A DNA stretch of 64,000 nucleotides, taken from a virus. The notes beneath the pieces were generated by a model. The model saw only the letters and a list, made by a program, of their open reading frames with translations, was not told the DNA's origin and made no database searches. Position 1 is the stretch's first letter; every line of letters starts with the position of its first letter. The DNA is taken from the IMG/VR virus record IMGVR_UViG_3300009661_000001, positions 637-64,636 of that record; one strand, given 5' to 3'. Shown piece by piece: positions 43,068 through 64,000 of this stretch. A program made the translations under genes and the position numbers.

Positions 43068-43106
43068 AATTTTTCTCCGTGATTGATGGTTGATTACGGC
43101 AGCTAA

Positions 43107-43778
43107 TTAAGGCGCCGAGAATTCGATGCCCAGATACGGGATATCCGAACCTGGGGCTGCCACGACGTAGCCGTTAATGGCCAGGCCGGTACCCGACTGG
43201 TCGGTGATCTGGCCGTTGGCGGCAAGCTTGATTGCCGTCGCTGCGTTCCAGTTCTTCGACGCATCGTATTCCGACGTGTAGATCAGGCCGCGCTTGATCA
43301 GGCCGATTTGGCCGATGTATGCACCGCTGTAGCCACCTGGTTGAATGTCGCCGATCAGAGCGCGAGCCTGGACGACGGTCAGTGCGTACTTGTAGGTGAC
43401 GTTGACTTGATCACCGACGGTCAAGCCGCTGACTTGATTGCCGGTAACGACAGGGCTGGCGACAGCGCTGTTCGAGGTCACGTCGAACACGAACGTCTGA
43501 CCGGTAACTGGCGTGAATTGCAGCGTCACGATGCCAGTTGCTGGAACGACGAAGGTCTCGATTTTGTTGGCGTAACCCTCAGCGAACGGAGCAGCCGAAG
43601 TACCAGCCAGCGAGAAGCCGGCGAAGACATCTGCCGAAGTACCGGTCGATGGCATCACGCCAGCCGATTGAGCGCCTTGAGCGCGGACCAGGGCCAGGCC
43701 CTCAGCAGTGATGTACACACCAGGTGCAACCGCTGCCTCAGCCGAGTCCGGGTATTTGGAAAGTGGACCGTAGATCAT
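43107..43778 (-). CDS. Head decoration/cement protein (probable)
   Basis: ATG 43778 after GGAGG; immediately upstream of the capsid gene; Ala/Gly/Thr-rich. Confidence 0.6.
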   Translation of the reverse strand: MIYGPLSKYPDSAEAAVAPGVYITAEGLALVRAQGAQSAGVMPSTGTSADVFAGFSLAGTSAAPFAEGYANKIETFVVPATGIVTLQFTPVTGQTFVFDVTSNSAVASPVVTGNQVSGLTVGDQVNVTYKYALTVVQARALIGDIQPGGYSGAYIGQIGLIKRGLIYTSEYDASKNWNAATAIKLAANGQITDQSGTGLAINGYVVAAPGSDIPYLGIEFSAP

Positions 43779-43826
43779 TGAAACCTCCAATAGTTGAGTT
43801 TGCTACATTAAACTACATGCTGTGAA

Positions 43827-45179
43827 TCAGCGTCCCAGAAACAGCGGTTGACTGCCATCCAACTTGGCCGAAGCCGTTACCGACAGCATACCCGGGCGGA
43901 CCGAGTTACCGATCTGACGTTGACGGGCGACGCCAGCAGTGGCCATCGTCGTCGGCATCACATCGTCGTCTTCACCGAGTTCGTCTGGATCATCGGTGCC
44001 GACTGGCAAGCTGTCTTCTTCCGATTCTTCCATATCACCGGAAGTCATATCCAGCGCCTCGACGAAGCCAGCGCGAGTTTCTTTCGGCATGGCCGACAGT
44101 TTCGTCGCCAGTTGAATCAGCTCTTTTGCGTAGGCGGGACCTTCGCTTGCAAACACACTGGCCAACAGGCGACGTGGATTGCGGACGCCGGCTTCTACCA
44201 GGCGAGCTTCCAGGGCGTCTTGCAGCGGATTCGTCACACCGGCGAAGTACTTGCGATTGATGCCGACAGCGGCGATTGCCATCGATTGATCCATCGTTGC
44301 GGCGTTGACTTCGTTGACCTTGCGAACGGCTGCGGTTTGCTTGTGAACCAGTTTCTTCACGCGCGCTTCAACAGCACTCGATTTGTTCATCGCGACCTTC
44401 GCCTCGATAAAGCCCATCGAACGCAGGCCTTTGCGTAGGCCCTGTTTGGCGATTTCGGCCGCCGTGACTTCTTGGAACTGGTCGGTCAGGTAGACGTCGG
44501 CGCGATCCAGTGCCGTTGCAGCGCGTTCGGTCAGCGTTGCGATGATGCGATTGGAACGGATGACCATCACACGCTTACCCAGCGTAGCAAAGGCCACATT
44601 GGTATCGTCGTCAGGCACCTGATCCACGTCCATCAGCGACATCGCTTCGTCACCCATTGCAGCTTCTTCAGGCTCGACAACTTCCTCGCCCTCGTCTTCC
44701 GAAATGGATTCTTCGCCTTCGTCGATGTCGTCTTCGGCGTGCTGGCTCAGCGGTTCATCCCAGTCTTAGTCGTCGCCTTCGGCGGTCAGTGGCGTTGGTT
44801 TGTTGCTGTTTTCCAGATCAGGTTCCAACGAACTCTGGACCTCTTCTTCGTCCATATCTTCGTCGTCATCCATATCGAAATCGGATGCGTTCTCCAGATA
44901 GCCCTTCGCTGGCTCGCCGTCATTCGGCAACGTGCCGATGTTTTGCTGGCAGTCGTCGCCGACCGTAGCCCTCGTTTTCTTGGCTTTCGCGGTAACCGAC
45001 GAGTGGGTCGAACCACCCGTGTAGTCTTCTGGATCGATCAGCGTGTCGGCGGACATATTGTTTTCGAGGTCTTGGTCGGCCTCGATGATGTCTACGTTAC
45101 CGCCGTTACCGCCGTGAGTCGAACCCGCCATGGTCTTGTTGCGCGGGACCAGGGGAGTCTTAGCTTTAGCAATAGGCAT
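43827..45179 (-). CDS. Scaffold/prohead core protein, one frame interrupted by an in-frame TAA at 44766-44768
   Basis: Track ORFs 44766..45179 and 43827..44657 are in the same frame; the 36 codons between them continue the acidic sequence. Confidence 0.7.
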
Positions 45180-45222: not shown

Positions 45223-45432
45223 TTAACCGTGAACTTTCTCTTTCAGGTCGCGCAGTTCCTCACGACGGTCTTCCAGTTGCTTACGCTCCTGGCTTGCGTC
45301 TTCCTTGTTTTCTTCCATATCGGCGACATCTTCCTCCAGGTTCATGATTTCTTTCTGGAGGTCAAGGATACGCTGCTTGTCACCGTTATCGTCCTCGAAT
45401 GCCCGCAACCGGGCAGCTGCTTCGATTTTCAT
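45223..45432 (-). CDS. MKIEA-tagged 69-aa coiled-coil protein
   Basis: Likely start ATG 45432 (MKIEAAARLRA), overlapping the upstream stop. Confidence 0.75.
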   Translation of the reverse strand: MKIEAAARLRAFEDDNGDKQRILDLQKEIMNLEEDVADMEENKEDASQERKQLEDRREELRDLKEKVHG

Positions 45433-45887
45433 AGCTTGACTAAGCCTTCCATGATGGGTAGCAGTTTCTTTGCAGATTCCATGTAGGCTTCCGCAACGTT
45501 CATACAATCCTTCAGGTCCTTCAAACCGTATTTGGCTTCACGTTTGATTTCGGCGACCACGTCTTTAGTAGCACGCATTTTCTTGGAGCTACTGTCCGTA
45601 TCAATCGAAAGGAAATTGCTTTGCAGTTCGACGCCGCTATCAACCGTTACGTTGACCGACACACTCAGGTAAGGTTCATCGGCCTCATCATCAGGTTCAG
45701 ACAGAGTGATTGTTACCTCGACTTCCACATCTTTACCCAATTTGGGTTTGAACTCGACGATTTCATCACCCCAGTTGTTCTTGGCCTTCTTGGTATAAGG
45801 ACCCAAGACCGCCTCAAATTTCTGTAACAGCGCACCCGCGCTGTCGGGACCAGCCGCCATAAGTCTTTTCTTGGCTTCGATTTTCAT
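45429..45887 (-). CDS. MKIEA-tagged acidic protein
   Basis: ATG 45887 after a GAGG RBS (MKIEAKKRLMA). Confidence 0.75.
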   Translation of the reverse strand: MKIEAKKRLMAAGPDSAGALLQKFEAVLGPYTKKAKNNWGDEIVEFKPKLGKDVEVEVTITLSEPDDEADEPYLSVSVNVTVDSGVELQSNFLSIDTDSSSKKMRATKDVVAEIKREAKYGLKDLKDCMNVAEAYMESAKKLLPIMEGLVKL

Positions 45888-45889
45888 GG

Positions 45890-46636
45890 TTACCTCGTAA
45901 GTATGTGGTCGCTCAAGGCCGTTGACCAAGCTGGGCTTTCGACCAGTGAGGTCTCAATACCTTGGATACCATGACTGTTTCGGAACGCAATCGAATCAGG
46001 TCCCTTGAAGTTCTTGACCACGCGCCAATCAATATCATTGCGTGGATCAAGATGCTGGCAGTATGAGTTCTCGGTCATTGGCTCACCGCAGCAGGAGCAG
46101 GTGAAGTTGTCAACCAGTGCACCCATCGAGTAGGTATTGATGTCACCATCCATGACGCGCTGCGCCATTTTCGGGTACTTCTTTTTATCGATACCCAGTA
46201 GACCCATAACCTTCCACAGCTTACCTTGTCCGTAGTCACTGACCTTATGCAGCGATGTATCGAAGATGATGCCATAGGCCGCAGTGTGGTCTTCGTTGGC
46301 GTGTTCGTAGTGAACAGGGCAACCAGTCCAGGTCTTGTAAGCCATACGGGCGTTTGGCGGCTCCTGAAATCTGGTCAACTCGTTGAGCGGGAACCCGATA
46401 CCGTTTCGATTCGGGATATCGGAAGGGCAAATAGGCGTCACAACCAGTATGTAATCCTCGATGTTCGGAGAGGTGTGGTACAGCTTTGCAGCGTACGGTA
46501 ACCAGGTCAGAGCATCGAGATTTACCAGCTCAGGATCGGTGTTCACGTCGGTAACGCGCTCTGATACTTGAGCTGCCGTTATGACGTTGGGTTTTTGCTC
46601 GGAGAAGTGACGTTCGCCAGAATGGAGTTCAAACAT
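45890..46636 (-). CDS. Prohead (maturation) protease, assemblin/HK97-type fold
   Basis: NRNG..F...EL, PVHYEH, YSMG...CSCCG, ETSLVESPAW motifs; position in the head operon. Confidence 0.7.
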   Translation of the reverse strand: MFELHSGERHFSEQKPNVITAAQVSERVTDVNTDPELVNLDALTWLPYAAKLYHTSPNIEDYILVVTPICPSDIPNRNGIGFPLNELTRFQEPPNARMAYKTWTGCPVHYEHANEDHTAAYGIIFDTSLHKVSDYGQGKLWKVMGLLGIDKKKYPKMAQRVMDGDINTYSMGALVDNFTCSCCGEPMTENSYCQHLDPRNDIDWRVVKNFKGPDSIAFRNSHGIQGIETSLVESPAWSTALSDHILTR

Positions 46637-47491: not shown

Positions 47492-47527
47492 AAAGAAAAA
47501 GCGACTAGCTTTATGGGCTAGTCGCTT
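47492..47527 (-). terminator. Intrinsic terminator after the SNF2 gene
   Basis: 11-bp stem AAGCGACTAGC / GCTAGTCGCTT followed by a T-tract. Confidence 0.85.
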
Positions 47528-52226: not shown

Positions 52227-52925
52227 CTACAATAGGCGTCGGTGATATCCATACGGGCGATTGGACCGTAAAACAGGCATCCAGAGAACATCGAGAGTAA
52301 ACTTCTCAAGCTCAGCGCGTGAGGGCAAGTGGCGACCCGGCAAGTCAGGGAACTGTCGGCAGGTAATTTCGTAACCTATGTGCCACCGTTGCGTCCCATT
52401 AGCTCCCTCATTGTAGACAACCATAGTTACGTTGTCGCTGAGGTGCTTGATATACTTACCGTCATGTTTAATGCGGAAGCCTGGGTATGGCGTCTGCATA
52501 AGCCACCGCACGAAGGTGGGGTCCTTGATGTAAACCTGACCGAACACATCGAGTGAAAACCCGATGTTATTCATCTTAACAACCCTTGAGGTCGTTCGTA
52601 TTTGAACGTGTTTAAGAAACTCACTGTGATTCAGAAACTTCACCACGGCTTTCCGAGCTTCTTTAAGATGATTTACGATCTGGTCATTCGCAGATTGCTT
52701 CAGATTGGAGAACGGGTAGATATCACGGTCAGTACAAGTGTTGACGAAATCCTTTATAGCCAGACCCCAGTCAACGTCCGGGTCATTAGTTGGAACCAAT
52801 CGCCCTATCACCTGATCCCACACAGGTTTACCGTTGATGTTAAAGCTGATGGGGAAAGCTGCTGCCGTAGGGCTCCTCGCCTGATCGATAGCGCTGACAC
52901 CCAAGCTGGCGAGGAAGGGTCTCAT
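52227..52925 (-). CDS. Hypothetical protein
   Basis: 232-aa ORF with ATGA overlap. Confidence 0.7.
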   Translation of the reverse strand: MRPFLASLGVSAIDQARSPTAAAFPISFNINGKPVWDQVIGRLVPTNDPDVDWGLAIKDFVNTCTDRDIYPFSNLKQSANDQIVNHLKEARKAVVKFLNHSEFLKHVQIRTTSRVVKMNNIGFSLDVFGQVYIKDPTFVRWLMQTPYPGFRIKHDGKYIKHLSDNVTMVVYNEGANGTQRWHIGYEITCRQFPDLPGRHLPSRAELEKFTLDVLWMPVLRSNRPYGYHRRLL

Positions 52926-53362
52926 GTTGGGCTCCGGAACGACGGTACACCGTCATCCGTCAGCACGTCTTGCGAATCAGGCGTGGTAACGCCTACACCG
53001 ATATCATGCACATCGGCACCGTCGTCGTTGGTTTCTTGTTGCGAACCCAAGTCGTCACCGGTCGGATCGCCGTCCGTGAGTGCCACGTCTTCCAGCGGAA
53101 TGGCATCCTCATCAATATTTGGATCGTAAAGTACATCCTCATCGGCGGCTTCAATCTTGGTTGCCATTGCCTCCGTTGGATCGGTCAGCACGTCGTCATC
53201 ATCACCGTCGACGACTTCGCCTAGAAGCTCATAAATGTGGGCTTCCAAGGCTTCCTTGTCCATGCCCAATGCACCAGCTAGGGCGTGTACCTGAGCATCG
53301 GCGGGTTTCGGATTCAATTGCAGAAAGATGGTAATTAGTTCGGTCAGTTTCTCGTTCATCAT
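52922..53362 (-). CDS. Very acidic hypothetical protein with internal KIEAA
   Basis: GGAG RBS; Asp-rich; contains MATKIEAADED. Confidence 0.7.
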   Translation of the reverse strand: MMNEKLTELITIFLQLNPKPADAQVHALAGALGMDKEALEAHIYELLGEVVDGDDDDVLTDPTEAMATKIEAADEDVLYDPNIDEDAIPLEDVALTDGDPTGDDLGSQQETNDDGADVHDIGVGVTTPDSQDVLTDDGVPSFRSPT

Positions 53363-53850
53363 TTGCTCCTATAGGATTGCAGGTATTTAATTATCTTTGT
53401 CGACCACTTGTCGTACTCAAGCGATGATATGCCGTCTAATTCTTTTATGGCAGCCTCGTGTGCGTTACCACCAAGTTGGACGTCCTTTTCTGCCATTACA
53501 AAAGGGCTTGCATCAGGGTATTTCTTACGTGCAGCAGCGATGGTCAGCTTAGCCTCGACGTATTCATGCTGCATTACGTGTACCAGCTCCCACTCTAGTC
53601 CGGCTTTCAAGCAAGCATTATAGAAAGAGGTTTGAAAAAGTATGGTTATATGACCAGTAAAATCTACGGTCCAACTGGCTTCCCAATCACCATTAGTACC
53701 CTTCAATTTTTCCATTAACTCTAAGCTGGTACGCGGAAATGGTGTGGTCTTATTCTTGATATGAGGTAGGTATGAAGGAACCTGCGCCACTGACCTGTCG
53801 TACCATGGTGGCGTCAAGGCGGTCAAGCGTTTCACGGCCTCTATCTTCAT
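53359..53850 (-). CDS. MKIEA-tagged protein with an HExxE...AH motif
   Basis: MKIEAVKRLTA; MQHEYVE...AHEAA suggests a metal-binding site. Confidence 0.65.
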   Translation of the reverse strand: MKIEAVKRLTALTPPWYDRSVAQVPSYLPHIKNKTTPFPRTSLELMEKLKGTNGDWEASWTVDFTGHITILFQTSFYNACLKAGLEWELVHVMQHEYVEAKLTIAAARKKYPDASPFVMAEKDVQLGGNAHEAAIKELDGISSLEYDKWSTKIIKYLQSYRSK

Positions 53851-54182
53851 CATTTGCACCCATGGTAAGTCTTTAAATGGTTATTGCCTGGGTGCCGTTG
53901 CTCATGGCAGTTATCGCACACCGACATCAAATTCTTTTTTGTAGTTGTACCGCCTTTGGAAAGGGGAAGTATGTGGTGACAGTCGGTAGCCTTTACAAGC
54001 TTGCCCTTACGCCGGCACGGGACGCAAAACCCCCCGTCACGCTTGAAAACCTCCTTACGAATATCCCACCAACTGTTGGTCTTAGTAAATCCTGAGACTG
54101 TCGCATAGCCACTGCGCTTGATTTTGGTGACCCCACTTTTGCTCGAAGTCCGTACTGAGGCAAATCTTTTTATCAGTCCCAT
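53850..54182 (-). CDS. HNH endonuclease
   Basis: RDGGFCVPC...DCHHILPLSKGG...NLMSVCDNCHEQRH. Confidence 0.9.
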   Translation of the reverse strand: MGLIKRFASVRTSSKSGVTKIKRSGYATVSGFTKTNSWWDIRKEVFKRDGGFCVPCRRKGKLVKATDCHHILPLSKGGTTTKKNLMSVCDNCHEQRHPGNNHLKTYHGCK

Positions 54183-55384
54183 GCGTATCCCTTGCGTTCG
54201 GCTTTATCCCAGCGCGCTTCTTTCTTTTTTTGGTAGTAACTGCGTATAGAAATTGCTGCCAGCCGAACATTATCACCTAGGCCAACCGGTATCCCGTGTA
54301 TGGTTGGTCCCTCTTGCTTCCGTAACTCATAGAACGATGAATCGGAAACTATCATAAAGTTGAAAGACTGGCCCGGTATGAATTTCTTGGCATCGGTAAA
54401 CGACACAAACGCCCAACCCTTCTTACCGAACGCTTTACAAGCCACCATACCGTCAACGAGTTTGCCTCCCCACACAACCGTAGCCAGTAGTGAATCGTGC
54501 GGCTGCACACGAACTAGCTTGTGTTCTTCAACCTGCTCCAAAGCCTGCTTATGTTTATTGATACGTGATTCGTATTCAATCTTTTCTTCTTCGGTCATGT
54601 AAGTGGACCGTTCGTTCGGATCATAGCGCCTAGGGTTCAGGCCAACTTTCTTCATCCATGCCTGCCAATTATGGCCGTGACCTCCCTCAGAGTGATCGGT
54701 AACCTTATCGATTTCGGACACTGCTTGATGGCACATTTCATGCAGCAGGACCTCAACAAAAAACGCAAACGTGTGATTCAACAAACGAGGACTCAACGCC
54801 AACTCGCGGTAGAACCCGTCCCAGAAACCGCGTGTCTTGAGGCTGGTTCCCCTAACGTTCTTCATAAACCGCAGGAGCTTAGGTATGTGCATTTTGCCTT
54901 GGAACTTATGGACATTAAGGTATATCCACAGGTCCTTCAAGAAGGTCAATGACAATTCAGGAAAAACCTGGCAGCGTTTAAACAGCGCCTCCAGCTTTGG
55001 ATCGACAGATATATGTGGTACATTGTTATCGTCATTCTCGGTACCTGTTCGTGGATCATGTGGCGGTTCGATTGGTTTTTCAACCGGTGCCTTTACTTCA
55101 GGTACCTCAGGTTTAGAACCTTTCTTCGTGTTCTTGAGCAACACAGTTTTGGTTGTGGGCCAAATAGCGACCACCCCACTCTTGTTGTACGCATACCGGA
55201 TACTCTTTTCTACACTCTTCGGCTCACCCAGCATAACCTTGACGCGGGCCTTGTCGTAATCCGAATAGTAGAACTTGATGATGTTGTCGCCCTCATGCTT
55301 GAAGCGGAGGCCGTGGAAGCCAAGCTCCAGGAGGAAGGCCTGTGCTTGGTTCCGGTCTGCCATTACGGCAAGAATCGGAGTCAT
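54173..55384 (-). CDS. SprT-like zinc metalloprotease with an N-terminal domain shared with 55993..56301
   Basis: VLLHEMCH (HExxH) and GHGHNWQAWM..VG SprT motifs. Confidence 0.85.
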   Translation of the reverse strand: MTPILAVMADRNQAQAFLLELGFHGLRFKHEGDNIIKFYYSDYDKARVKVMLGEPKSVEKSIRYAYNKSGVVAIWPTTKTVLLKNTKKGSKPEVPEVKAPVEKPIEPPHDPRTGTENDDNNVPHISVDPKLEALFKRCQVFPELSLTFLKDLWIYLNVHKFQGKMHIPKLLRFMKNVRGTSLKTRGFWDGFYRELALSPRLLNHTFAFFVEVLLHEMCHQAVSEIDKVTDHSEGGHGHNWQAWMKKVGLNPRRYDPNERSTYMTEEEKIEYESRINKHKQALEQVEEHKLVRVQPHDSLLATVVWGGKLVDGMVACKAFGKKGWAFVSFTDAKKFIPGQSFNFMIVSDSSFYELRKQEGPTIHGIPVGLGDNVRLAAISIRSYYQKKKEARWDKAERKGYAWD

Positions 55385-55944
55385 CGGAAACCTTTCTGTA
55401 TGAACGCATCGGGATCAACTCCTTTGGCAAGCAGGATGAGGCGCACACCGTCGACTTCAGCCAGACCTAATGCGTTCTCACCACTTGACTTGAGCATCGT
55501 AACCTTGTCGTTGACTGCAAGCAGGTCATATTGCTTGCTCAATGCCTTCCACACCTGTGCGGAGGCTGCACTCTGTACGTCGTGGCTAAGGATACTCATT
55601 TTGTTATCTAACACCCATTTGTACAGAGCCTTAGCGAAGCCCATTCCTCGGTAAGGCTTGAGGAAGAAAGAGCTTGGTACAAATAGACGCCCGAATGGAA
55701 AATCGCGAGGCACAATGGACAAGAGGCCCACCGGTTCATCGTTGTGGACCAAATAGATGTCGAAGATGATTCCCTGCTTATTTACTTGGATGCGAAAACC
55801 CGGAGTATTGGTTGGCACATTCTTGATAGAACCCTCACCAAGGTGAAATTCATCTAGAGCGGCTTGACCTTGTTTATCGGAGAACGCAACGTCAGACGGT
55901 ACTATGTGTACTGATTGCAGGCGAGTAAGGGCTTCGATTTTCAT
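55381..55944 (-). CDS. MKIEA-tagged GNAT-fold protein
   Basis: YRGMGFAKALY acetyl-CoA-binding motif A; S..QS..S..VW..L. Confidence 0.7.
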   Translation of the reverse strand: MKIEALTRLQSVHIVPSDVAFSDKQGQAALDEFHLGEGSIKNVPTNTPGFRIQVNKQGIIFDIYLVHNDEPVGLLSIVPRDFPFGRLFVPSSFFLKPYRGMGFAKALYKWVLDNKMSILSHDVQSAASAQVWKALSKQYDLLAVNDKVTMLKSSGENALGLAEVDGVRLILLAKGVDPDAFIQKGFR

Positions 55945-55957
55945 ATTTAGACCTCAG

Positions 55958-55984
55958 AAAAAGGGAGGCCGTTTAAGACCTCCC
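55958..55984 (-). terminator. Intrinsic terminator
   Basis: GGGAGGTC...GGCCTCCC stem plus TTTTT on the minus strand. Confidence 0.75.
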
Positions 55985-55992
55985 TCGTTGAA

Positions 55993-56301
55993 TTACTGAC
56001 CGCGTTTGCTATTTTTGAAGATCACTTCCTTACGATTAGGCCACACTGCGAGGACACCAGCGCCCGGGACGTTGTAGCGGATCGATTCGGACTTGGTCGT
56101 TTCTTTCGGCGCGCCCAGTTTCTTGTTCAGCATCTTCTCGTTGTATTTCTCGTACTTGAAGGTCAAGATGTCCTCGTCGCTTTTCTTCAGCGTGACACCG
56201 GTGAAGCCGACCTCGGTCAGGTACTTGATGGCTTTTTTCTCCGAGCCTTCTGCTGCCAGGATTTCGGATTTTGCGATACGTGCGGCTGCTTCGATTTTCA
56301 T
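55993..56301 (-). CDS. MKIEA-tagged small basic protein
   Basis: AAGGA RBS; MKIEAAARIAK; homologous to the SprT protein N-terminus. Confidence 0.8.
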   Translation of the reverse strand: MKIEAAARIAKSEILAAEGSEKKAIKYLTEVGFTGVTLKKSDEDILTFKYEKYNEKMLNKKLGAPKETTKSESIRYNVPGAGVLAVWPNRKEVIFKNSKRGQ

Positions 56302-56327
56302 GGTATTTCCTTTTGAGGTTGAGTTAC

Positions 56328-56726
56328 TTAAAATTGACGGCCTTCAACGTCGTCGCTGATTACACCATCTTGGATAAAACCGTGATACCCACCATGGAGA
56401 TTGATTGAAGGGTGAACCGTGATGTTGGGTGCATCACCAGTTACCATCCATCCTCCATAGTAATTACCGCTTGACCAACACATGCCATCGACGCAGAAAA
56501 GGTCTTTGTTCGGTAGCACTACCACCAAAGGCTTACGGTGGATGTTAGTCGTGAGATAAAATTCGGACAAGTGCCTGCACACAAAATGCACAGATCGAGT
56601 CCACTTTGGGTCGTCCTCTTCTTCTAAACCCGGCCCCCAGAATGCATCGCCAGGCTTTAGCGTAGCACCATCACCTCTTGAATACATGCCTTTCTCGTAC
56701 TCAATCATTCTTAAAGGCCACGGCAT
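56328..56726 (-). CDS. DUF6527-like protein
   Basis: W..TGDAPNITVHPSI....YHGFIQDG pattern. Confidence 0.55.
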   Translation of the reverse strand: MPWPLRMIEYEKGMYSRGDGATLKPGDAFWGPGLEEEDDPKWTRSVHFVCRHLSEFYLTTNIHRKPLVVVLPNKDLFCVDGMCWSSGNYYGGWMVTGDAPNITVHPSINLHGGYHGFIQDGVISDDVEGRQF

Positions 56727-56735
56727 AGTAGTCTC

Positions 56736-57356
56736 CTATTTAGGCCAAATAAATCGGAACAATGGTTTTGGTCCTGCGGTGAGATTGATATCGCCTTGTG
56801 GGTGTTTGTAAATCAGATCGTCACCTCGTTGTTCAATCTCGTTACGTTTGGTCTTGATGTTACCACTGACCTCTATGTAAATCTTTGGTGTGGATTTGTA
56901 GAGACTCAGCCACGTATAATAACTGAACGTTCCAAGGTCATCCGAACTTTCGATACCATTCTTACTGTATTGGTGGACCGTTACGTATAAGGCTTTTCCG
57001 TACCCTTGCCCACGAACTGTAGGATTCGTCCAGATGGATTCCACCACATCTCTTGGATTTTGTTTCAAAGCCTTTATGAATCCCAGGATTTGTGCTACAC
57101 CAGCACTGTGAAGGGAATCTAGCTCACCATCGAGCTTTAACTCTGACCCTTTAACCAGACATTCGGCAACAACAAAAGTGCGTTTCCACGTTTGATTGTA
57201 CATTAGCAGAACGCCAGTACCATGATGATTCAGAACCTTAAACGCGGAGGCGTCAGTATCATGCAGTAGGTCACGTGCAACTTCAGGGCCGCGCCCAAAG
57301 TTGTCGCCCTCCGTTATCGCCATTGCGGTTAGCCTGCTTAGGGCCTCTATCTTCAT
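56736..57356 (-). CDS. MKIEA-tagged GNAT-fold protein
   Basis: VRGQGYGKALY; close paralog of 57748..58383. Confidence 0.75.
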   Translation of the reverse strand: MKIEALSRLTAMAITEGDNFGRGPEVARDLLHDTDASAFKVLNHHGTGVLLMYNQTWKRTFVVAECLVKGSELKLDGELDSLHSAGVAQILGFIKALKQNPRDVVESIWTNPTVRGQGYGKALYVTVHQYSKNGIESSDDLGTFSYYTWLSLYKSTPKIYIEVSGNIKTKRNEIEQRGDDLIYKHPQGDINLTAGPKPLFRFIWPK

Positions 57357-57357
57357 A

Positions 57358-57738
57358 TTAACCTTTCGGTGGCTCTAAGGCCTCAGCAGTATCAGTCGCA
57401 CGCTTGTCTTCGGTACGACGTGACAGGTATTTATCTAGGGCTACTGAACCAGACCAAACAACCATGTAGCCTGTAAAGTAGCTTTCGGTCAACTGACCTT
57501 TTAAGGTCAAGGCAATAAAGCCCCAGCTTGATACTACCAAAGCCACTATCTGACCGATCTTGTGAATCGATGGACGTTTCTTTTCGTCGTAGATTAGCCA
57601 GCGCAAATCTACGGAGTCTCGCTTGACCTGCATATAGCCGAGCAGACAAATGACGAAGGTAATGGTCAGAAACAATAGGGCTTCCATTACTGTCACATCG
57701 CCGGGGTGCAACCATAGCTGCCCTAGTGTTTTGTTCAT
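57358..57738 (-). CDS. Small multi-pass membrane protein, holin-like
   Basis: Three hydrophobic segments; DLRWLI.D...PS..KIGQ..ALVVSSW pattern seen in phage membrane proteins. Confidence 0.55.
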   Translation of the reverse strand: MNKTLGQLWLHPGDVTVMEALLFLTITFVICLLGYMQVKRDSVDLRWLIYDEKKRPSIHKIGQIVALVVSSWGFIALTLKGQLTESYFTGYMVVWSGSVALDKYLSRRTEDKRATDTAEALEPPKG

Positions 57739-57747
57739 ACTCGTTCC

Positions 57748-58383
57748 TTATTTTGGCCAAATAAAATAGAAAGTTGGCGTCCCGCGTGCGGTTAATTCAA
57801 CCAACTTATCACCATAGTCGTACAAAATATCTAACCCGTTTACGGTTATCTTTTTCCTGTCAAGCGCACCTTGATACCACTTTGGTACATTAAGCTTTAT
57901 TTCAGGATGAGCCTTGAACAACGATATCCATAGACCTAAACTCATAGTACCGAGTGAGTCAGAACTACGAATACCCTTTTTAGACATTTCATAGGCGACC
58001 TTGTAAAGTGCCTTCCCATATCCCTTGCCTCGGTAATTTTTGTGCACCCATACCGCAGATGTTTCCTCCCTTACACCAAGAATGAGAGCATCATGCGATA
58101 CTGCCATATAGGCTATGGCTGAATCGAACCCACTCTTTGCTATGGTTTTATTTTCCTTTAGGGCTGCCGAGAAATCTGATAGTGGTACCTTAATAGTTAC
58201 CAAAAGAAGCGTACCCGTTTTCGGTGAGTGTAACAAGACCTGGTTCTCGTGCGAATTTAGGACCTTAAATTGAGAACCCTCGCGTGTGGAAACGAGCCAC
58301 GCTACATCGTCTGCTGCCCCTGAAAAATTATCACCTTGCGTTATGGTCATACCTTTAAGTCTCGCGGCGGCTTCTATAATCAT
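57748..58383 (-). CDS. Tagged (MIIEAAARL) GNAT-fold protein
   Basis: YRGKGYGKALY; SS..LGT.S..W.SL; ends FIWPK like 56736..57356. Confidence 0.75.
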   Translation of the reverse strand: MIIEAAARLKGMTITQGDNFSGAADDVAWLVSTREGSQFKVLNSHENQVLLHSPKTGTLLLVTIKVPLSDFSAALKENKTIAKSGFDSAIAYMAVSHDALILGVREETSAVWVHKNYRGKGYGKALYKVAYEMSKKGIRSSDSLGTMSLGLWISLFKAHPEIKLNVPKWYQGALDRKKITVNGLDILYDYGDKLVELTARGTPTFYFIWPK

Positions 58384-58386
58384 AAG

Positions 58387-59436
58387 TCACCCATATTGTT
58401 TGATATACTTGAGGATGTCGTTGATGACCTTCAACTGGTTTTCTTCATTAAGGTTTTCTTCATTAATGGCACCAATGGTGACCACGGGTTTCTTGCCATG
58501 ATCGTAGTCGTAGAATTCAAATACCGTTTTCTCTGCACCGTAGCGACCGCTGCCACTCCAGCCCATAAGCTCCATAATACGTGGCTCGCCTTCTTCGTCT
58601 TTTGGTGGGTATTTGACGAACTTCGTTTCGTAGTAGGCTTTATTCTGGATAGTCTTTGCTTGGTAACCTTGCAAGGTCATCAGGTGTACGATGTCTTTGA
58701 CACCCTTCTCTGCGACCTGAGACAACTGAGTTGAGCGAGCCATCAGCTTCTGTTCGGCTGCGGTCAACGCAAGTTTATCAAATGCTTTTAGGCGGGATGC
58801 TGCCTCGATCTTGAATGCTCTAACCATGCGTTCTGGCAGAGGTCGTGCGAAGGCCGTGGCTTTCTTGGCAGCTGTAAATGCTTGCGCCCGTGTGAAAGTG
58901 TGGCCGTTCTCGCAGCTACTCGTGGCCTTAGTGTCGTCTGGTGTACGGGCTGTGGAAGTAATACGACCACTACAGGTTGGGCATGGTGTTTCGTAAATAC
59001 TGGTCATTGCTTGAACTCCCGTTGGTTTGTCTTGTGGTGATTTCTTGTAGAGCTTGCGTAATTCTTCTTTGGCTTTATGGAGCCGATCTTTATCAGGGCT
59101 CATTAGTTTCTTGCCAGCGCGATTTACATAGAAGCTTATGGCCCCCATCGCTGCCTTAAAATCGTCCTTATACCTATTCTTCAAGGTCCTAGCTAATTCA
59201 CCAGGTTGCATCTTGAAGGTAGTGTCATCAGGGTTACCGGATAATGGCGGTTTCTCCTGATTCTTAATCTTGGTCTTACGTTCGACCTTCTCCGACCAAT
59301 CACGGTCATACGCTTTAATGCGTGCGGCGGCTTCGATGGCATCCTTCATGGAAAACTCGTGGTTGTTGTAGCACTGGGCTATTGAGCCACTGTAGGTCGC
59401 AGCAGGAGGTGAGCCACATATTGGACATACCTTCAT
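58387..59436 (-). CDS. Multi-module protein: zinc ribbon - tag - DUF3175-like - zinc ribbon - tag - unknown
   Basis: CPIC...C.N.H.F and CPTC...C.N.H.F; internal IEAAARIKA and KIEAASRLKA; AMGAISFYVNRAG. Confidence 0.7.
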   Translation of the reverse strand: MKVCPICGSPPAATYSGSIAQCYNNHEFSMKDAIEAAARIKAYDRDWSEKVERKTKIKNQEKPPLSGNPDDTTFKMQPGELARTLKNRYKDDFKAAMGAISFYVNRAGKKLMSPDKDRLHKAKEELRKLYKKSPQDKPTGVQAMTSIYETPCPTCSGRITSTARTPDDTKATSSCENGHTFTRAQAFTAAKKATAFARPLPERMVRAFKIEAASRLKAFDKLALTAAEQKLMARSTQLSQVAEKGVKDIVHLMTLQGYQAKTIQNKAYYETKFVKYPPKDEEGEPRIMELMGWSGSGRYGAEKTVFEFYDYDHGKKPVVTIGAINEENLNEENQLKVINDILKYIKQYG

Positions 59437-59448
59437 CGTCTACTCCTT

Positions 59449-60255
59449 TTAAGCCGTCGAGAACTTCATCTTGGTCTTCAGATGAGAAAGCCCTTGTTTG
59501 ACAGTTGGGTTGGAGGGCGCGTGTTTGAATGCCGTATAGCATAGGGCAATCATCAGGTTATACGGTATTGAGACTGCGAGCCAAGAAGGACTTGGCCACG
59601 GTGTAGCCAAGCCTGCTACCACCAGACTGATTGCCAATAATCCTTGCGGCGAGGTGAACAGTTCAGCCGCAGACCAATGACCATGCAGCGCTGCTTTAAT
59701 GAGGGCTGCAAAGTCCATATCAAGGTCTGGGTGTGCTGTAAAGTTGCCGGCTAAAAACGCCCAGATCAGCAGGCCAGCTACGGCGGGACCAGCGAGGCGT
59801 CGCAGAATTGGGTACTCTTCCAAAAACTCATCAAGCTTTAATGCACCGGAATGCAGCTTTTGGAAAGCTCGGGTTTCATGAAGCTTAGAGAACAAGGTCA
59901 GTATGCCTTCTTTGTACAAGGTCGCAAAAGCCTTGATCGGTTTGACCAAAGAGGCCACCGTGAACTTAATTGCCTTAAGTAGCGCAAACATTGGGCGTGT
60001 CTTGAAGGCCTCAACGATAGCGCTAATTTCTAGGCCCGTTTCCTTGGCGACCTCACTTACCATCGATTTAATGTGTTGAAAGAAATCGTTGATTTGATCG
60101 ACACCAGTTTTGATCGATTTCCAGATGTCAAGTGCATGTACTTTGTTTGGCTCATTGATATTGTCGAGCAGTGCCGTCCAGTGTGCATACTGGATTTGAG
60201 AGGCTAAAGTTCGGTGACGTGATGCCAACAGTCGGGCGTGTGCTTCGATCTTCAT
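59449..60255 (-). CDS. MKIEA-tagged protein with hydrophobic C-terminal helices
   Basis: MKIEAHARLLA; LAGPAVAGLLIWAFLAG and GLLAISLVVAGLA segments. Confidence 0.7.
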   Translation of the reverse strand: MKIEAHARLLASRHRTLASQIQYAHWTALLDNINEPNKVHALDIWKSIKTGVDQINDFFQHIKSMVSEVAKETGLEISAIVEAFKTRPMFALLKAIKFTVASLVKPIKAFATLYKEGILTLFSKLHETRAFQKLHSGALKLDEFLEEYPILRRLAGPAVAGLLIWAFLAGNFTAHPDLDMDFAALIKAALHGHWSAAELFTSPQGLLAISLVVAGLATPWPSPSWLAVSIPYNLMIALCYTAFKHAPSNPTVKQGLSHLKTKMKFSTA

Positions 60256-60263
60256 GTGTGGTC

Positions 60264-60881
60264 CTAGGAAGAGAACGGGTCCGTTATAATTGGGTCTTCA
60301 CCGCGCATCATTATATTTTTACTGTGCAAATCAAGGCGGATTTTTCCGCCGACGGTTTTAACAATAAACTTAGCGACTAGCGCAATATCTCGATCTTTCT
60401 TTTGTTTGGCCAGGTCTTCCCATACCTCTGTTATGTTAAGTCCCATATTCACGTACTCCGGTGAATTTAGTTCTTTTATTTCGTCTGACCGACCAGCCGT
60501 TAGAAATAAATAAGTCCCAAACTGCATGTAGTCCCTTCGTTTCATGGGAGTCAATTTCTCCATAAAAACCAAACGCAGGTCTCTGAATTCTGTTTCGTCT
60601 CCATCAAAGGCTTTATCGGCTTCTACTACCTGGAGTATCTTGGGCATATACTTATTAGCGTTCTTTTGGCTAAACTTAATATATGCTTCATATCCAAGAT
60701 CAGTACCAGTCAAAATTTTAACCACTACATTAGGCATGGTAGGATGCTGAAATACATTTGCATAAAGGCCACTACCTACCTGCTTGAGACCCAGCTTCTT
60801 AAGGCGGTCTATGTATTCGTACAAGCGTTCGGCTATCATCATTTTTGTCGCAACCAATCGCTGCGCTGCCTCGATCTTCAT
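60264..60881 (-). CDS. MKIEA-tagged protein-kinase-like enzyme
   Basis: Gly-loop VGSGLYANVF, VVKI lysine, catalytic DLHSKN, metal-binding ITDP. Confidence 0.8.
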   Translation of the reverse strand: MKIEAAQRLVATKMMIAERLYEYIDRLKKLGLKQVGSGLYANVFQHPTMPNVVVKILTGTDLGYEAYIKFSQKNANKYMPKILQVVEADKAFDGDETEFRDLRLVFMEKLTPMKRRDYMQFGTYLFLTAGRSDEIKELNSPEYVNMGLNITEVWEDLAKQKKDRDIALVAKFIVKTVGGKIRLDLHSKNIMMRGEDPIITDPFSS

Positions 60882-60899
60882 TTAAGGCTCCTTATATGT
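60868..60899 (-). repeat. 32-nt direct repeat, copy A (RBS + tag start)
   Basis: ACATATAAGGAGCCTTAAATGAAGATCGAGGC; 31/32 identical to 62150..62181. Confidence 0.9.
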
Positions 60900-61001
60900 T
60901 GGGTACCAGTGCAGAATCTTAACCCTAGATTTAGGCGGCATCAACATGGTTACTTCATCCTCCTCGGGAAGATGGGAGTATATTGCTGCCTCGATTTTCA
61001 T
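60882..61001 (-). CDS. 39-aa MKIEA-initiated mini-ORF (possible remnant)
   Basis: MKIEAAIYSHLPEEDEVTMLMPPKSRVKILHWYPTYKEP*; fills the gap between two genes exactly; below the track cutoff. Confidence 0.55.
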   Translation of the reverse strand: MKIEAAIYSHLPEEDEVTMLMPPKSRVKILHWYPTYKEP

Positions 61002-61002
61002 A

Positions 61003-61509
61003 CTATACCTTCGTCAATTGGTTAGAGCTGAACAAACCATAGGTTTCTATATTGTTGTTTTGGCCCTCATACGCCTTTATCGCGTCGAACCCGGCTGCCT
61101 TAAGAACCTGAATAAGTTGAGGTAATTCCATATACCACTCCCACACTTCTTTGTGACCACTGTATGCCGCGGAAAGACGGCGTAATTCTTCGACCAATTT
61201 ACGACCAAGTACATCGCTTATATGATGTTGCTTAAATTGACCTAGTACGCCATCCCGTATTCTAGAACAAACTTCATTGAGTTTAACCTGTGTCGTCAGC
61301 GTCCTGAACCCAAATTCAAACGGGTGTACTACATTCACATGAAATGCGTAAACATGGTCCGCATCCTTTGCATACTCCAAGGCGTAGTTATGATCTGACG
61401 TTACAAATATCAAATGTTGATTTCTAGCATGATCCTCTTTCCAGGTTTCGTTTAAACCTCGGTAGAAAACCTGTGAAGCTTTCAATCTTGTTGCCGCTTC
61501 GATTTTCAT
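61003..61509 (-). CDS. MKIEA-tagged ADP-ribosyltransferase-like protein (ART-PolyVal-like)
   Basis: FYRG first strand, FVTSD...A.EYA, H.N..HPF and GFDAI...E.Y..F...Q tail. Confidence 0.65.
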   Translation of the reverse strand: MKIEAATRLKASQVFYRGLNETWKEDHARNQHLIFVTSDHNYALEYAKDADHVYAFHVNVVHPFEFGFRTLTTQVKLNEVCSRIRDGVLGQFKQHHISDVLGRKLVEELRRLSAAYSGHKEVWEWYMELPQLIQVLKAAGFDAIKAYEGQNNNIETYGLFSSNQLTKV

Positions 61510-61898
61510 ATGCGGTCCTTGGGGTAATCAGGGAGGTCGACTAATTGATTTGCCATCGCGTGCGTGCAATCGCCTAGGAACTGAATCTTACCAGGTGTCG
61601 ATCCGTCTGCGGAACCCACAAAACTATGGCAGTAAGACGGTTTCGGCTTACCCTGGGCATCCAGTACCCAATCACCAGTCCATAAACCATCGCCGCCTAT
61701 GACCACTTCGTGACCTGAAACACCAACAGACGGACTAAATACTGGCAGATCACCAGAGCCATTCCATGCCCATCCATTAGGTGGGGCAACGCTAACTGCA
61801 TGAGGTTTCTTACAGGCCGGGCAGAAAAACAAAGTATAGCCTGCGTCGGACATCATCAGTTTGGTACCCTTGCGTTTCATTTCATTTTCTGGACTCAT
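61506..61898 (-). CDS. DUF6527-like protein
   Basis: CPAC..PH, W.WNG....P.FSPSV, CHSFV...G.IQFLGDCTH; likely start 61898. Confidence 0.65.
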   Translation of the reverse strand: MSPENEMKRKGTKLMMSDAGYTLFFCPACKKPHAVSVAPPNGWAWNGSGDLPVFSPSVGVSGHEVVIGGDGLWTGDWVLDAQGKPKPSYCHSFVGSADGSTPGKIQFLGDCTHAMANQLVDLPDYPKDRI

Positions 61899-61899
61899 A

Positions 61900-62163
61900 T
61901 TATTCCCCGTAAAGCTTTCGTAATTCGTCTTTGGCCTTCTCCAGGTTCTCTTTATTTTCGACCTTGTCGCCACCGCGGTTGATGTAGAAATTTAAAGCCG
62001 ACATAGCGGACTTCAGGTCAGAGTGAAGCTTCTTTAAGCCTTTGGCGATGGCGGCCCCACTTTTCTTGAACAACCCTTCTGGTGGATGGTTCTCTACCTT
62101 TTCGGTAACGGGTTGACTCCATTTGTCGGCTTTCAGTAACCGTGCTGTGGCCTCGATCTTCAT
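61900..62163 (-). CDS. MKIEA-tagged DUF3175-like protein
   Basis: KWS..VT...SAMSALNFYINRGG...LEKAKDELRKLYG. Confidence 0.7.
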   Translation of the reverse strand: MKIEATARLLKADKWSQPVTEKVENHPPEGLFKKSGAAIAKGLKKLHSDLKSAMSALNFYINRGGDKVENKENLEKAKDELRKLYGE

Positions 62164-62181
62164 TCAAGGCTCCTTATATGT
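62150..62181 (-). repeat. 32-nt direct repeat, copy B (RBS + tag start)
   Basis: ACATATAAGGAGCCTTGAATGAAGATCGAGGC. Confidence 0.9.
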
Positions 62182-62479
62182 CGTAGACTTCAAGGGTTCC
62201 ACCGTCGTCCGGCGGATCATTTAACACGATACCGATTTCGTCATTCCATTTATCCCACACGTACAGCTTGGTATCTCCTTTGCGACCAGTCTTAGGCTGA
62301 CCCAATTTCTTGGTCAAAATCTTGAGGACCTCTGTGGCCGAGGTGTACAATTCGTAGGTTGCGCTACCAGATACTATGTGTACCAGGTCGGCATCGATAC
62401 CCATATTGCTGAGTAACTTTTCGGTCATACCCCAATTGGTATCAGCCGCCTTAAGTCGTTGGACTGCCTCGATCTTCAT
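62174..62479 (-). CDS. MKIEA-tagged hypothetical protein
   Basis: MKIEAVQRLKA; GGAGG RBS. Confidence 0.75.
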   Translation of the reverse strand: MKIEAVQRLKAADTNWGMTEKLLSNMGIDADLVHIVSGSATYELYTSATEVLKILTKKLGQPKTGRKGDTKLYVWDKWNDEIGIVLNDPPDDGGTLEVYDI

Positions 62480-63261
62480 TTGAAGCCTCCTATGAAGGAT
62501 TGGACAGCCATTCCACCTGCATTAAATAAACGCTGACGAGTAGCCTTATTCATGTTGCGATCAAGTGAGGAAGCGTAACCTGTTTCAACAAAGGCCACCT
62601 GTGCACCTTCCAGCGATGCGATATCGATGTGGGCTGCCTCAGAGGCATTCATCATTAGGTTGAGCATATGCATGGGACGATTGAGTAATGTCAGTGGTGA
62701 TGTGTCATTCGCCACCAGCTGAATACCGATGCGGGGTCGCGCGCGGGTCAGCCGGTCAATCGGTATGTTGTTGCTCAGGCCACCGTCAACCATTTGTATG
62801 CCGTCGTAGTTGAAAGGCTCGTAAACGAACGGTATAGAAGTCGACGCCCGTACTGCATCGGCGATCAAAGCATGTGGTGTAGCGTAACGGCTAAACTCAA
62901 ATGGTTTTTCTGCCTTTACGTCGGACGCTATTACTGTCAGATCATGGTCCAGTTCGATAAACGTTTTTTCTTCCGTCATTTGAAGCAACCACTCATGCAG
63001 ATTATTGCCGTTGCACCAACTAATACCTGGCCAGGACGATGGTGTAGGCGTCAACATCGACGACCAATCGTTATTCATCGTCAATTCGACCAGCGAATCG
63101 ATATCGTGACCGCATGCGTATAAGGCTGCTACAATAGAGCCTCCACTGGTACCAGCTACTTCCTCAGGTATCAAACCTGCTTTGAGTAAAGCAGATAAAG
63201 CACCTACGTGAGCCGGGAATTTAAAACCACTGCCACTAAAGGCCGTATTGATTGCAGTCAT
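62476..63261 (-). CDS. Patatin-like phospholipase
   Basis: FSGSG oxyanion loop, GTSGG nucleophile elbow, DGG catalytic Asp. Confidence 0.9.
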   Translation of the reverse strand: MTAINTAFSGSGFKFPAHVGALSALLKAGLIPEEVAGTSGGSIVAALYACGHDIDSLVELTMNNDWSSMLTPTPSSWPGISWCNGNNLHEWLLQMTEEKTFIELDHDLTVIASDVKAEKPFEFSRYATPHALIADAVRASTSIPFVYEPFNYDGIQMVDGGLSNNIPIDRLTRARPRIGIQLVANDTSPLTLLNRPMHMLNLMMNASEAAHIDIASLEGAQVAFVETGYASSLDRNMNKATRQRLFNAGGMAVQSFIGGFK

Positions 63262-63264
63262 ATG

Positions 63265-63807
63265 TCACCTATTTTCGATTAGCAGTAGGACCTCAGGGTC
63301 GGTCCATTTGGCGCCTGGTGAAGTTTCATAGGCTCCACCTTTAACCTGGCGTATGGTCTTCACGTTGTACTGAGTACCAAGGCGTTTCCAAAGGTTGTGG
63401 CTCATACGTGACTGCCTGCTATCTGATATGAGATTAAACACGGTTATGGCCCACTCGTACATACCCAGCATTACACCTCGCCCACGCATATCTGGTATTA
63501 AGTAAGAGGACGCTGTTCCAACTTGAAGGGTTTTGTCATCAAGCCATATACGCTTTGGTGTAATGTGCAGACTTCCGACCGCCGTACTGTCGCGGAAACA
63601 TATGAGGTTGATTCCTTTGTGGATGCCGGTTTTGCAGTCATAGACCCGAAAGTGAATACCATTTCTTTGTCCGAGTGTTTTAAAGGCATCCGGTTTTTCC
63701 GCAAAGACCTCTGTCATATCACCAAGTACACTGCGCCCCATGCTGTCGCTGTAGCCTTCTTTTACGATTCTCACTGACCTCAACCTTAACGCAGCTTCGA
63801 GTCTCAT
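63265..63807 (-). CDS. Tagged (MRLEAALRL) GNAT-fold protein
   Basis: MRGRGVMLGMY; SDSRQS..S..LW..L; resembles 55381..55944. Confidence 0.65.
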   Translation of the reverse strand: MRLEAALRLRSVRIVKEGYSDSMGRSVLGDMTEVFAEKPDAFKTLGQRNGIHFRVYDCKTGIHKGINLICFRDSTAVGSLHITPKRIWLDDKTLQVGTASSYLIPDMRGRGVMLGMYEWAITVFNLISDSRQSRMSHNLWKRLGTQYNVKTIRQVKGGAYETSPGAKWTDPEVLLLIENR

Positions 63808-63810
63808 ACA

Positions 63811-63999
63811 TCACCTGTTGACGGTTGGATATGGGAGACCGGAGCGGTATGGACCCCAAGGAGACGCTGGGGTAATCGTGATACCCACCGAACCCAAAGC
63901 ACCCTGCGCAAGCTTCGATAGGTCTGCCGAACCATCGCCTGACGTTTGACCCTTAATGATAAGGTTCTGCTTGAAGGGCTTGATTTCATTGTCGAGGCG
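63811..63999 (-). CDS. C-terminal end of a gene entering from beyond the window
   Basis: Frame reads RLDNEIKPFKQNLIIKG...PYPTVNR* (TGA at 63811-63813), more protein-like than track ORF 63804..63989. Confidence 0.6.
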   Translation of the reverse strand, partial: RLDNEIKPFKQNLIIKGQTSGDGSADLSKLAQGALGSVGITITPASPWGPYRSGLPYPTVNR

Positions 64000-64000
64000 C

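Follow-up and report, generated by a model that had tools for sequence, protein, structure and literature searches.

The locus described here raises the question of why genes for unrelated proteins should begin with the same short peptide, and where that peptide takes its bearers. It lies in a 64,000-nucleotide stretch from an uncultured giant (jumbo) myophage (the window; bases 637-64636 of the 77.7-kb contig IMGVR_UViG_3300009661_000001). An open reading frame (ORF) listing and a six-frame motif scan reveal 11 full-length minus-strand genes in the island at positions 53359-63807 that open with the N-terminal tag M-K-I-E-A-x-x-R-L or a one-residue variant of it; the phage consensus is MKIEAAxRLKA. 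The initial annotation had counted 12 tagged starts among the 19 ORFs of this island, and a 13th ORF with the tag inside. Both counts stand: the twelfth is a 39-codon remnant that starts MKIEAA and lacks R-L, and the 13th is a gene for a protein of 349 amino acids (aa) with two internal copies. We consider it rather probable that the tag is a lineage-specific capsid-targeting address on a variable enzyme kit, loading it into the head, or at least into the virion.

The signal resides in the peptide. A search of the window with the strict back-translated pattern gives 10 matches, and 100 shuffles gave a mean of 0.00. Within the phage, M1, E4, A5 and R8 are invariant, K2, I3 and L9 nearly so, and A11 is frequent, and the codons vary synonymously between copies (AAA/AAG, ATC/ATA, GAA/GAG, all four Ala codons, six Arg and five Leu). 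Synonymous variation at almost every position indicates that the peptide, not the DNA, is conserved and under selection. The same residues are kept, with different codons, across phages of only ~40% protein identity. The bearers have unrelated folds, and in the 87-aa DUF3175 protein the domain begins at residue 14, directly past the tag. The view of the island as separate genes under one tag survives as a peptide-level signal on unrelated folds. No description of the tag (‘MKIEA’ in this sense) was found in the literature.

The tag extends past the proposed island limits. The whole contig holds 22 copies on one strand, 19 N-terminal and three internal, in genes co-oriented with the head genes. 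Two copies start at 45887 and 45432, and seven more follow on the same strand past the window end; among these, one tags a NUDIX hydrolase and another lies immediately upstream of the portal-like gene. A 285-aa ORF in that region (L021 10748-11605) has one tag at its N-terminus and a second at residue 130, before a NUDIX domain; a ribosome-binding-site-like sequence precedes the internal ATG, and the frame may yield two products. Only this ORF and the 349-aa protein combine two tagged units. Most tagged proteins are basic, as are the internal proteins of T4 (PMC8442874).

The tag extends throughout a clade comprising phiRSL1, BCSR5, BcepSauron, Motura and five metagenomic relatives (L013, L014, L015, L022 and L023), with the invariant core [IL]-x-A-x-x-R-L; the Glu of the present phage is replaced by Q, N or any residue in relatives. 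In phiRSL1 it reads M-x-x-I-x-A-A-x-x-R-L-x-A on ORF120, 123, 124, 127 and 133, with related forms on ORF109 (NUDIX) and ORF111. The form is MKIEAAxRLKA in BCSR5, M-x-I-Q-A-x-x-R-L on at least 14 genes of Motura, M-x-IKIEA.. in L013, MKI-x-A-x-x-RL in L014, MK[LV]NA-x-x-RL in L015 and MKIEA.. in L022 and L023; BcepSauron has few copies. Each of the five metagenomic relatives bears 9-14 tagged genes within 12-20 kb. Xanthomonas PhiXhv-15, Vibrio GR7B, P. putida Voja-6, Lu11 and Erwinia pEa_SNUABM_23 are more remote jumbo phages that share the SNF2, capsid and protease families, and in them the pattern does not rise above chance level.

Beneath the constant tag the cargo changes, as had been anticipated for related phages. 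The backbone found in all relatives consists of the membrane protein, SprT, the HNH endonuclease, an acidic 146-aa protein and a 232-aa protein, and the SNF2 helicase is likewise constant. At 1e-3, the syntenic regions of the four cultured phages yielded none of the island's tagged cargo. L022 (57% identity) shares the 268-aa protein, DUF3175, the ADP-ribosyltransferase (ART), the 102-aa protein, one GNAT, SprT and the HExxE protein; it is without the kinase and the 211/206-aa GNAT pair, and has three other tagged genes. P0002, a 78% relative for which gene calls alone were compared, has no ORFs of the size of the kinase, the ART or the GNAT pair and carries an extra gene of the saccharopine-dehydrogenase type. 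Six contigs from other samples represent the same phage (99.97% identity, no indels) with identical content, that is, with no strain-level cassette variation; a 206-aa variant in L009 was rejected as a cassette difference, the gene being cut by the contig end.

The tag is modular, since the same enzyme occurs with and without it. The SprT gene of the window starts in mid-tag (MTPILAVMAD) behind an in-frame upstream stop, and its orthologues in L013, L014, L015 and L022 are fully tagged (MKIEAAHRL in L022, for example); judged from its sequence, it is a natural tag-loss variant. Its place among the untagged neighbours in the initial annotation holds for this phage and not for those four relatives, and the patatin, the HNH endonuclease, the two DUF6527-like genes and the membrane protein are untagged as described. 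A homospermidine-synthase-like enzyme (saccharopine-dehydrogenase type) is tagged in L013 (5726-7171) and L014 (2801-4228) and untagged in phiRSL1 (L001 7798-9240). NUDIX hydrolases are tagged in this contig, phiRSL1 and BcepSauron. The 349-aa protein is a fusion of two genes that are separate and non-adjacent in L022. A 31/32-nt direct repeat at 60868-60899 and 62150-62181, comprising the ribosome-binding site and the first tag codons, bounds a 1.28-kb block with the DUF3175, BubE-like and ART genes and abuts the 39-codon tag-only ORF, an arrangement that looks like the scar of a cassette recombination. With a repeat next to a remnant ORF, and with genes fused and split, the tag junctions are probably also recombination points.

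The tagged genes occupy the head-gene block. The gene order is that of phiRSL1: a portal/connector-like gene, a small-gene stretch, two conserved ORFs and the SNF2 helicase, then two small ORFs, the prohead protease, a scaffold-like gene, the decoration protein, the major capsid protein and the sheath. The small-gene stretch measures 10.4 kb with 19 ORFs here, against ~3.9 kb with 9 ORFs in phiRSL1. Between protease and scaffold, one to four small tagged genes are also present in RSL1, BCSR5, L013 and L014, and one of those in BCSR5 encodes a 65-aa Lys/Pro-rich peptide. Positions around the portal-like gene and between protease and scaffold are those expected of core or internal head proteins, which supports a head address.

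The cargo identities named in the initial annotation are largely retained (Table 1). The kinase is a T7-type protein kinase by PHROG profile, and DUF3175 domains are found twice. Three of the four GNATs have weak Pfam matches, two or three of them barely over the Acetyltransf_1 cut-off (21.6-22.0 vs 20.7 bits), and the fourth is assigned as a paralogue. The HExxE protein and the 268-aa protein received no family from Pfam, PHROGs or the Atlas. A preprint (10.1101/2024.11.21.623953) shows that BubE, DUF6527 in older Pfam, cleaves ubiquitin-like conjugates as a Ser-His protease of bacterial Bub operons, and the phage BubE-like copies could undo host conjugation of this kind.

The ART-like gene can be placed more specifically, with the ART-PolyVal domains of polyvalent proteins. 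Pfam gives no match to the 168-aa protein, PF18760 included, with E as high as 5. In the ESM Atlas it falls among ART-PolyVal/AcrIF11 clusters (features 0.95, 200/256 shared, TM 0.65), and a profile built from it and four orthologues, all tagged, retrieves 114 representative proteins. Many of these are solo proteins of 150-250 aa, and in others, giants of 2,300-5,000 aa, the domain is embedded far within the chain; the targets at 1e-25 to 1e-41 include proteins that pass PF18760. Among eight profile matches scanned, six pass the Pfam ART-PolyVal threshold and a seventh is sub-threshold, and three also contain MuF_C, PBECR5+SLT or LPD23. The giants are polyvalent proteins in the sense of Iyer et al. 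2017 (PMC5512222). All five orthologues have Y16-R17-G18, T37 and E148-G149, and most representatives retain YRG, the catalytic roles (R / S-T / E) being assigned by pattern alone. All matches outside the clade begin at query residue ~11-17, so the tag is an add-on ahead of the ART domain. An AlphaFold2 (AF2) model of the protein (pLDDT 74, first 60 residues poor) has a low-confidence separate helix at residues 4-11, followed by coil to ~33. Comparison of this model, whose core is weak, with the PDB by Foldseek and VIA-align gave no significant match, nor did a PDB sequence profile search. With neither PDB nor Pfam match, the assignment draws on the Atlas and on transitive profile homology, which identify the gene as a true ART-PolyVal relative.

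The closest parallel of proven mechanism is the capsid-targeting sequence (CTS) of T4. The first 10 residues of T4 IPIII are enough to bring any protein into the scaffolding core, and T-even phages possess hypervariable internal proteins that share only the capsid-targeting peptide (PMC3012670, PMC9026906). Here, too, an N-terminal peptide of ~10 residues is common to otherwise unrelated proteins of one phage, the cargo is hypervariable between related phages as the tag is kept, and the cargo includes an ADP-ribosyltransferase. The T4 sequence is MKTYQEFIAE (PMC8442874). Its processing Glu stands at position 10, whereas the only Glu of the present tag is at position 4. The present tag also occurs internally. 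Tagged genes are far more numerous per genome than in T4, with at least 19 on 78 kb, and they mostly encode enzymes, in contrast to the small basic DNA-binding proteins of T4.

The two systems meet in their cargo. Of 60 solo ART-PolyVal representatives, about 15 open with a leader that resembles the CTS (MKTFKQFITE and MKSFSQFINE are examples). In a T4-type metagenomic phage with a T4 portal, gp19 tube and terminase (L029 8001-11538), six consecutive genes between the sheath and the gp19 tube/portal genes start MK[TS]FK[QS]FI-x-E, one of them as MISFKQFINE, and this array has two ART-PolyVal members, the homologue of the present gene beginning MKTFKQFITE; ~2 kb downstream, ahead of the portal gene, comes a seventh gene whose leader is similar (MIRFKEFITEN). 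On another contig a GNAT and an ART stand side by side with a common CTS-like leader. The same cargo type is thus found behind a known capsid address in T4-type phages and behind MKIEAxxRL here, at the same position and with the same length. Elsewhere, in a 262-kb jumbo phage (MH460463.1; L028 4136-6510), an ART-PolyVal homologue starts (L)QIFVSLS, with a leader M-x-I-x-x-S-L-S common to several solo homologues, and two neighbouring genes share another start, M-[AS]-LIK-[IL]-N-[IL]...SESAA. These leaders may be further lineage-specific tags.

Polyvalent proteins have been argued to be packaged, and solo versions of their domains beside late genes were already noted (Iyer, Burroughs, Anand, de Souza and Aravind 2017; PMC5512222). 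The island shares with them ART-PolyVal, kinase, GNAT, a zincin-type peptidase, an adjacent SNF2 helicase and NUDIX (kinase and GNAT being matched to general PHROG and Pfam families), as well as a position near portal and late genes. It differs in architecture: 2-15 conflict domains are joined per polypeptide there, whereas here they are separate genes of 87-403 aa, each tagged. No island ORF matches MuF or MuF_C, and the domains here are not fused behind a MuF-type head-morphogenesis domain. In working terms the system is of CTS type with polyvalent-type cargo, yet it is not a member of either family, because the tag has no sequence relationship to the T4 CTS and the genes are separate and lack a MuF module.

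Other systems offer partial likenesses. To AcrIF11-type ADP-ribosyltransferase anti-CRISPRs the link is that the 168-aa protein falls with clusters bearing PF26151 AcrIF11_ADP_ribosyl and PF18760 ART-PolyVal; it has no direct sequence or PDB fold match, and we know of no AcrIF11 protein that is tagged for packaging. In the Dar system of phage P1, the DarB methyltransferase-helicase is packed in the head and protects the incoming DNA, and incorporation proceeds by ordered protein-protein interactions. A large SNF2-type helicase gene within the head-gene block and presumably packed accessory proteins recall that system by description, but P1 is not known to use a shared peptide tag. Encapsulins are cellular nanocompartments with an HK97-fold shell, whose cargo-loading peptides are usually C-terminal and have other consensus sequences. 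There, as in microcompartments, a short terminal peptide and a linker address diverse enzymes to the shell interior, a working analogy and not a homology.

Under the favoured reading, the tag would be a short, probably helical N-terminal address that engages a receptor in the assembling head of RSL1-like jumbo phages and directs unrelated proteins there, with the island between portal-like gene and SNF2 helicase as the main cargo depot. The cargo (GNATs, a kinase, ART-PolyVal, DUF3175 proteins, a SprT-type peptidase and small domains without assigned function) would be made late alongside the head genes and packed into the procapsid, with or without cleavage of the tag. It would be released into the next host with the DNA, a step that is derived from loading into the head, and would modify host or defence proteins before phage gene expression. 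Between relatives, cargo genes come and go, fuse and split, and the tag and the untagged backbone persist.

Several observations weigh against this reading. The tag has no sequence similarity to the T4 CTS. Its Glu was considered as a T4- or phiKZ-like cleavage site and rejected, not being conserved in relatives. Internal tags behind zinc ribbons, present here and in several relatives, do not fit a classical N-terminal propeptide. The benefit of packaging is less evident for metabolic cargo such as the NUDIX and homospermidine-synthase-like enzymes, and the term ‘anti-host kit’ used in the initial annotation proves too narrow for that reason. A few tagged genes lie in tail and fibre clusters, and the destination could be another part of the virion. 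Prediction of a complex between the scaffold (450 aa), major capsid protein and tagged 101-aa protein returned a score of 0.00, which speaks neither for nor against binding.

The tag could instead be a docking helix for an intracellular hub of the producing cell, outside the virion; the acidic 146-aa protein, the 232-aa protein, the SNF2 helicase or a chaperone are candidates for that hub. Tagged metabolic enzymes (NUDIX here, homospermidine-synthase-like in L013 and L014) would fit such a role, as would the tolerance of internal positions, the two conserved proteins and SNF2 gene that always close the island, and the extreme acidity of one closing protein (isoelectric point, pI, 4.05) facing a basic tag. 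A hub leaves unexplained, however, why one to four tagged genes always sit between prohead protease and scaffold, why tagged genes are nearly confined to the structural block, and why T4-type phages place a T4-type capsid-targeting leader on the same ART-PolyVal cargo; we regard it as unlikely. Attachment to neck, tail or fibre, with the tag as a plug for exchangeable virion accessories and not a key to the capsid interior, appears quite improbable. Single tagged genes do occur past the sheath and tube genes and beside the tail-fibre gene in BCSR5, BcepSauron and Motura, but most flank portal, protease and scaffold, and the kinase, ART, GNAT, NUDIX and SprT cargo is of an intracellular type that needs cytoplasmic substrates and cofactors.

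The repeated 5' ends might also be mainly a device of the DNA or RNA, either a microhomology for cassette recombination or a start that favours translation initiation. The 31/32-nt repeat around the 1.28-kb block, with the truncated tag-only ORF adjoining it, and the genes fused or split between relatives would agree with this. The synonymous variation described above, which includes R and L at positions 8-9, largely excludes it, as does the retention of residues with different codons across the clade. Most copies, moreover, share no more than ~65-75% DNA identity. We hold this explanation to be very improbable, and recombination at the junctions may still occur as a by-product.

The capsid-address reading may be widened only tentatively. 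Jumbo and T4-type phages might use interchangeable lineage-specific tags to load a swappable effector pool into their capsids, the ART-PolyVal module riding behind MKIEAxxRL, behind a T4-type CTS or behind a third leader, M-x-I-x-x-S-L-S, in Erwinia/Dickeya-type phages, or being fused within MuF-bearing giants. In this doubtful but possible scheme the tag of the RSL1 clade would be an uncleaved docking helix that also acts internally.

Table 1. Genes of the tagged island and of the adjoining head-gene block, from high to low coordinates.
Feature	Positions	Strand	Tag (start)	Evidence and remarks
Portal/connector-like gene, 3' end (501 aa; phiRSL1 ORF118 homologue)	63811-64000	minus		PHROG 17327 ‘head-tail connector protein’, 3.6e-64; upstream island boundary
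GNAT-like, 180 aa	63265-63807	minus	63807 (MRLEAALRL)	Paralogue of 187-aa GNAT (blastp 2.7e-8); weak Acetyltransf_9, 0.014; L014 orthologue tagged MNINAFRRL
Patatin-like phospholipase, 261 aa	62476-63261	minus	untagged	PF01734, 9.5e-31; untagged in L013 too
Small protein, 101 aa, without family	62174-62479	minus	62479	L013 homologues tagged
DUF3175 protein, 87 aa	61900-62163	minus	62163	PF11373, 4.9e-13, residues 14-86 vs profile 1-85 of 86; tagged orthologues in L015, L022, L023; zinc ribbon precedes domain in L013, L014
DUF6527/BubE-like (a), ~130 aa	61506-61898	minus	untagged	PF20137, 24.1 bits vs gathering cut-off 23.6; called in L005 as 130 aa ‘BubE’
ART-PolyVal-type ADP-ribosyltransferase, 168 aa	61003-61509	minus	61509	Atlas and profile homology
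Remnant ORF, 39 codons	60882-61001	minus	MKIEAA, then diverges, without R-L	Beside 32-nt repeat
Protein kinase, 205 aa	60264-60881	minus	60881	PHROG 15752 (T7-type protein kinase), 2.1e-21, residues 22-204; PF27024 Phage_T7_kinase weak
268-aa protein, hydrophobic C-terminal half	59449-60255	minus	60255	Tagged orthologues in L022, L023
349-aa protein	58387-59436	minus	internal, 59343 and 58815	Zinc ribbon, tag and DUF3175, then zinc ribbon, tag and C-terminal domain
GNAT, 211 aa	57748-58383	minus	58383 (MIIEAAARL)	Acetyltransf_7 1.5e-5; Acetyltransf_1 22.0 bits vs cut-off 20.7
Membrane protein, 126 aa; phiRSL1 ORF119 homologue	57358-57738	minus	untagged	blastp matches in RSL1, L013-L015, L022; backbone
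GNAT, 206 aa	56736-57356	minus	57356	Paralogue of 211-aa GNAT, blastp 1.7e-31
DUF6527/BubE-like (b), 132 aa	56328-56726	minus	untagged	PF20137 23.0 bits, just below cut-off 23.6; L022 orthologue
102-aa protein	55993-56301	minus	56301 (..ARI)	Body homologous to SprT N-terminal domain (residues 4-89), blastp 7.4e-18
GNAT, 187 aa	55381-55944	minus	55944	Acetyltransf_1 21.8 bits vs cut-off 20.7
SprT-like metallopeptidase, 403 aa	54173-55384	minus	only rear half remains	PF10263, 1.3e-12
HNH endonuclease, 110 aa	53850-54182	minus	untagged	PF01844, 1.1e-11; backbone, in all relatives
163-aa protein with HExxE motif	53359-53850	minus	53850	Tagged L022 orthologue, 67% identity
Two conserved backbone genes, 146 aa and 232 aa	52227-53362	minus	untagged	Close the island
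SNF2-family helicase, 1528 aa	47533-52119	minus		Within head-gene block
Prohead maturation protease	45890-46636	minus		PHROG 18299, 1.7e-78
Two genes between protease and scaffold (152 aa; 69-aa coiled coil)	45223-45887	minus	45887, 45432
Scaffold-like gene (43827-45179), decoration protein, major capsid protein	41982-45179	minus

The SNF2 helicase of the phage has 38-43% identity to the counterparts in Burkholderia BCSR5, Ralstonia phiRSL1, Achromobacter Motura and Burkholderia BcepSauron/Saruman. In L013 (11288-16852, 1854 aa) and L014 (10773-16322, 1849 aa) the helicase is ~320 residues longer, with weak intein/Hint Pfam matches; the 1528-aa gene of the window has no such matches. The sole strong intrinsic-terminator-like hairpin of the region (47499-47527, 11-bp stem and T-run) lies directly past the SNF2 gene, a position which suggests that the island through the helicase forms one long transcription unit. 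A sigma-70 promoter scan of the region stayed below chance and gave nothing usable. No T4 gp21-family match was found for the prohead protease. The scaffold-like gene contains an in-frame TAA at 44766-44768, where a 99.97% identical contig (L005) has GAA and a single 450-aa ORF; this head gene is an essential one, and the TAA in it is either a sequencing error or a nonsense variant.

For the 232-aa backbone protein (52227-52925), a confident AF2 model (pLDDT 88) gave no clear known fold on fold comparison (top match DUF4853, Z 6.5); the model bears a faint resemblance to phage neck/collar proteins and DUF3168. Searching IMG/VR and JGI metagenome contigs with this flanking protein found no relatives, and no GenBank phage matched the island by megablast.

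In conclusion, the modular system had been called possibly undescribed. That holds for the tag itself, so far as the literature was searched; the concept is established for T4 internal proteins (PMC3012670, PMC9026906), and solo domains had been noted as well (PMC5512222). What is new is the tag, the clade and a much larger set of enzymatic cargo. Should the tag be a capsid address, sequence alone would suffice to list the proteins delivered by RSL1-like jumbo phages along with their DNA, each tagged enzyme would be a candidate modifier of host or defence proteins in the first minute, and the tag would be a handle to load foreign proteins into large capsids, like the T4 CTS. Should the wider scheme of interchangeable tags hold, the whole injected proteome would be legible from sequence and re-programmable; it would number some 20 proteins or more, among them a kinase, acetyltransferases, an ADP-ribosyltransferase, a NUDIX and a polyamine enzyme. 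One ART-PolyVal module behind three leaders or inside giants bears on how polyvalent and solo effectors interconvert in evolution. The hosts of RSL1-like jumbo phages are Ralstonia, Burkholderia and Achromobacter, and these phages, some of them cultured, attract interest for biocontrol and therapy.

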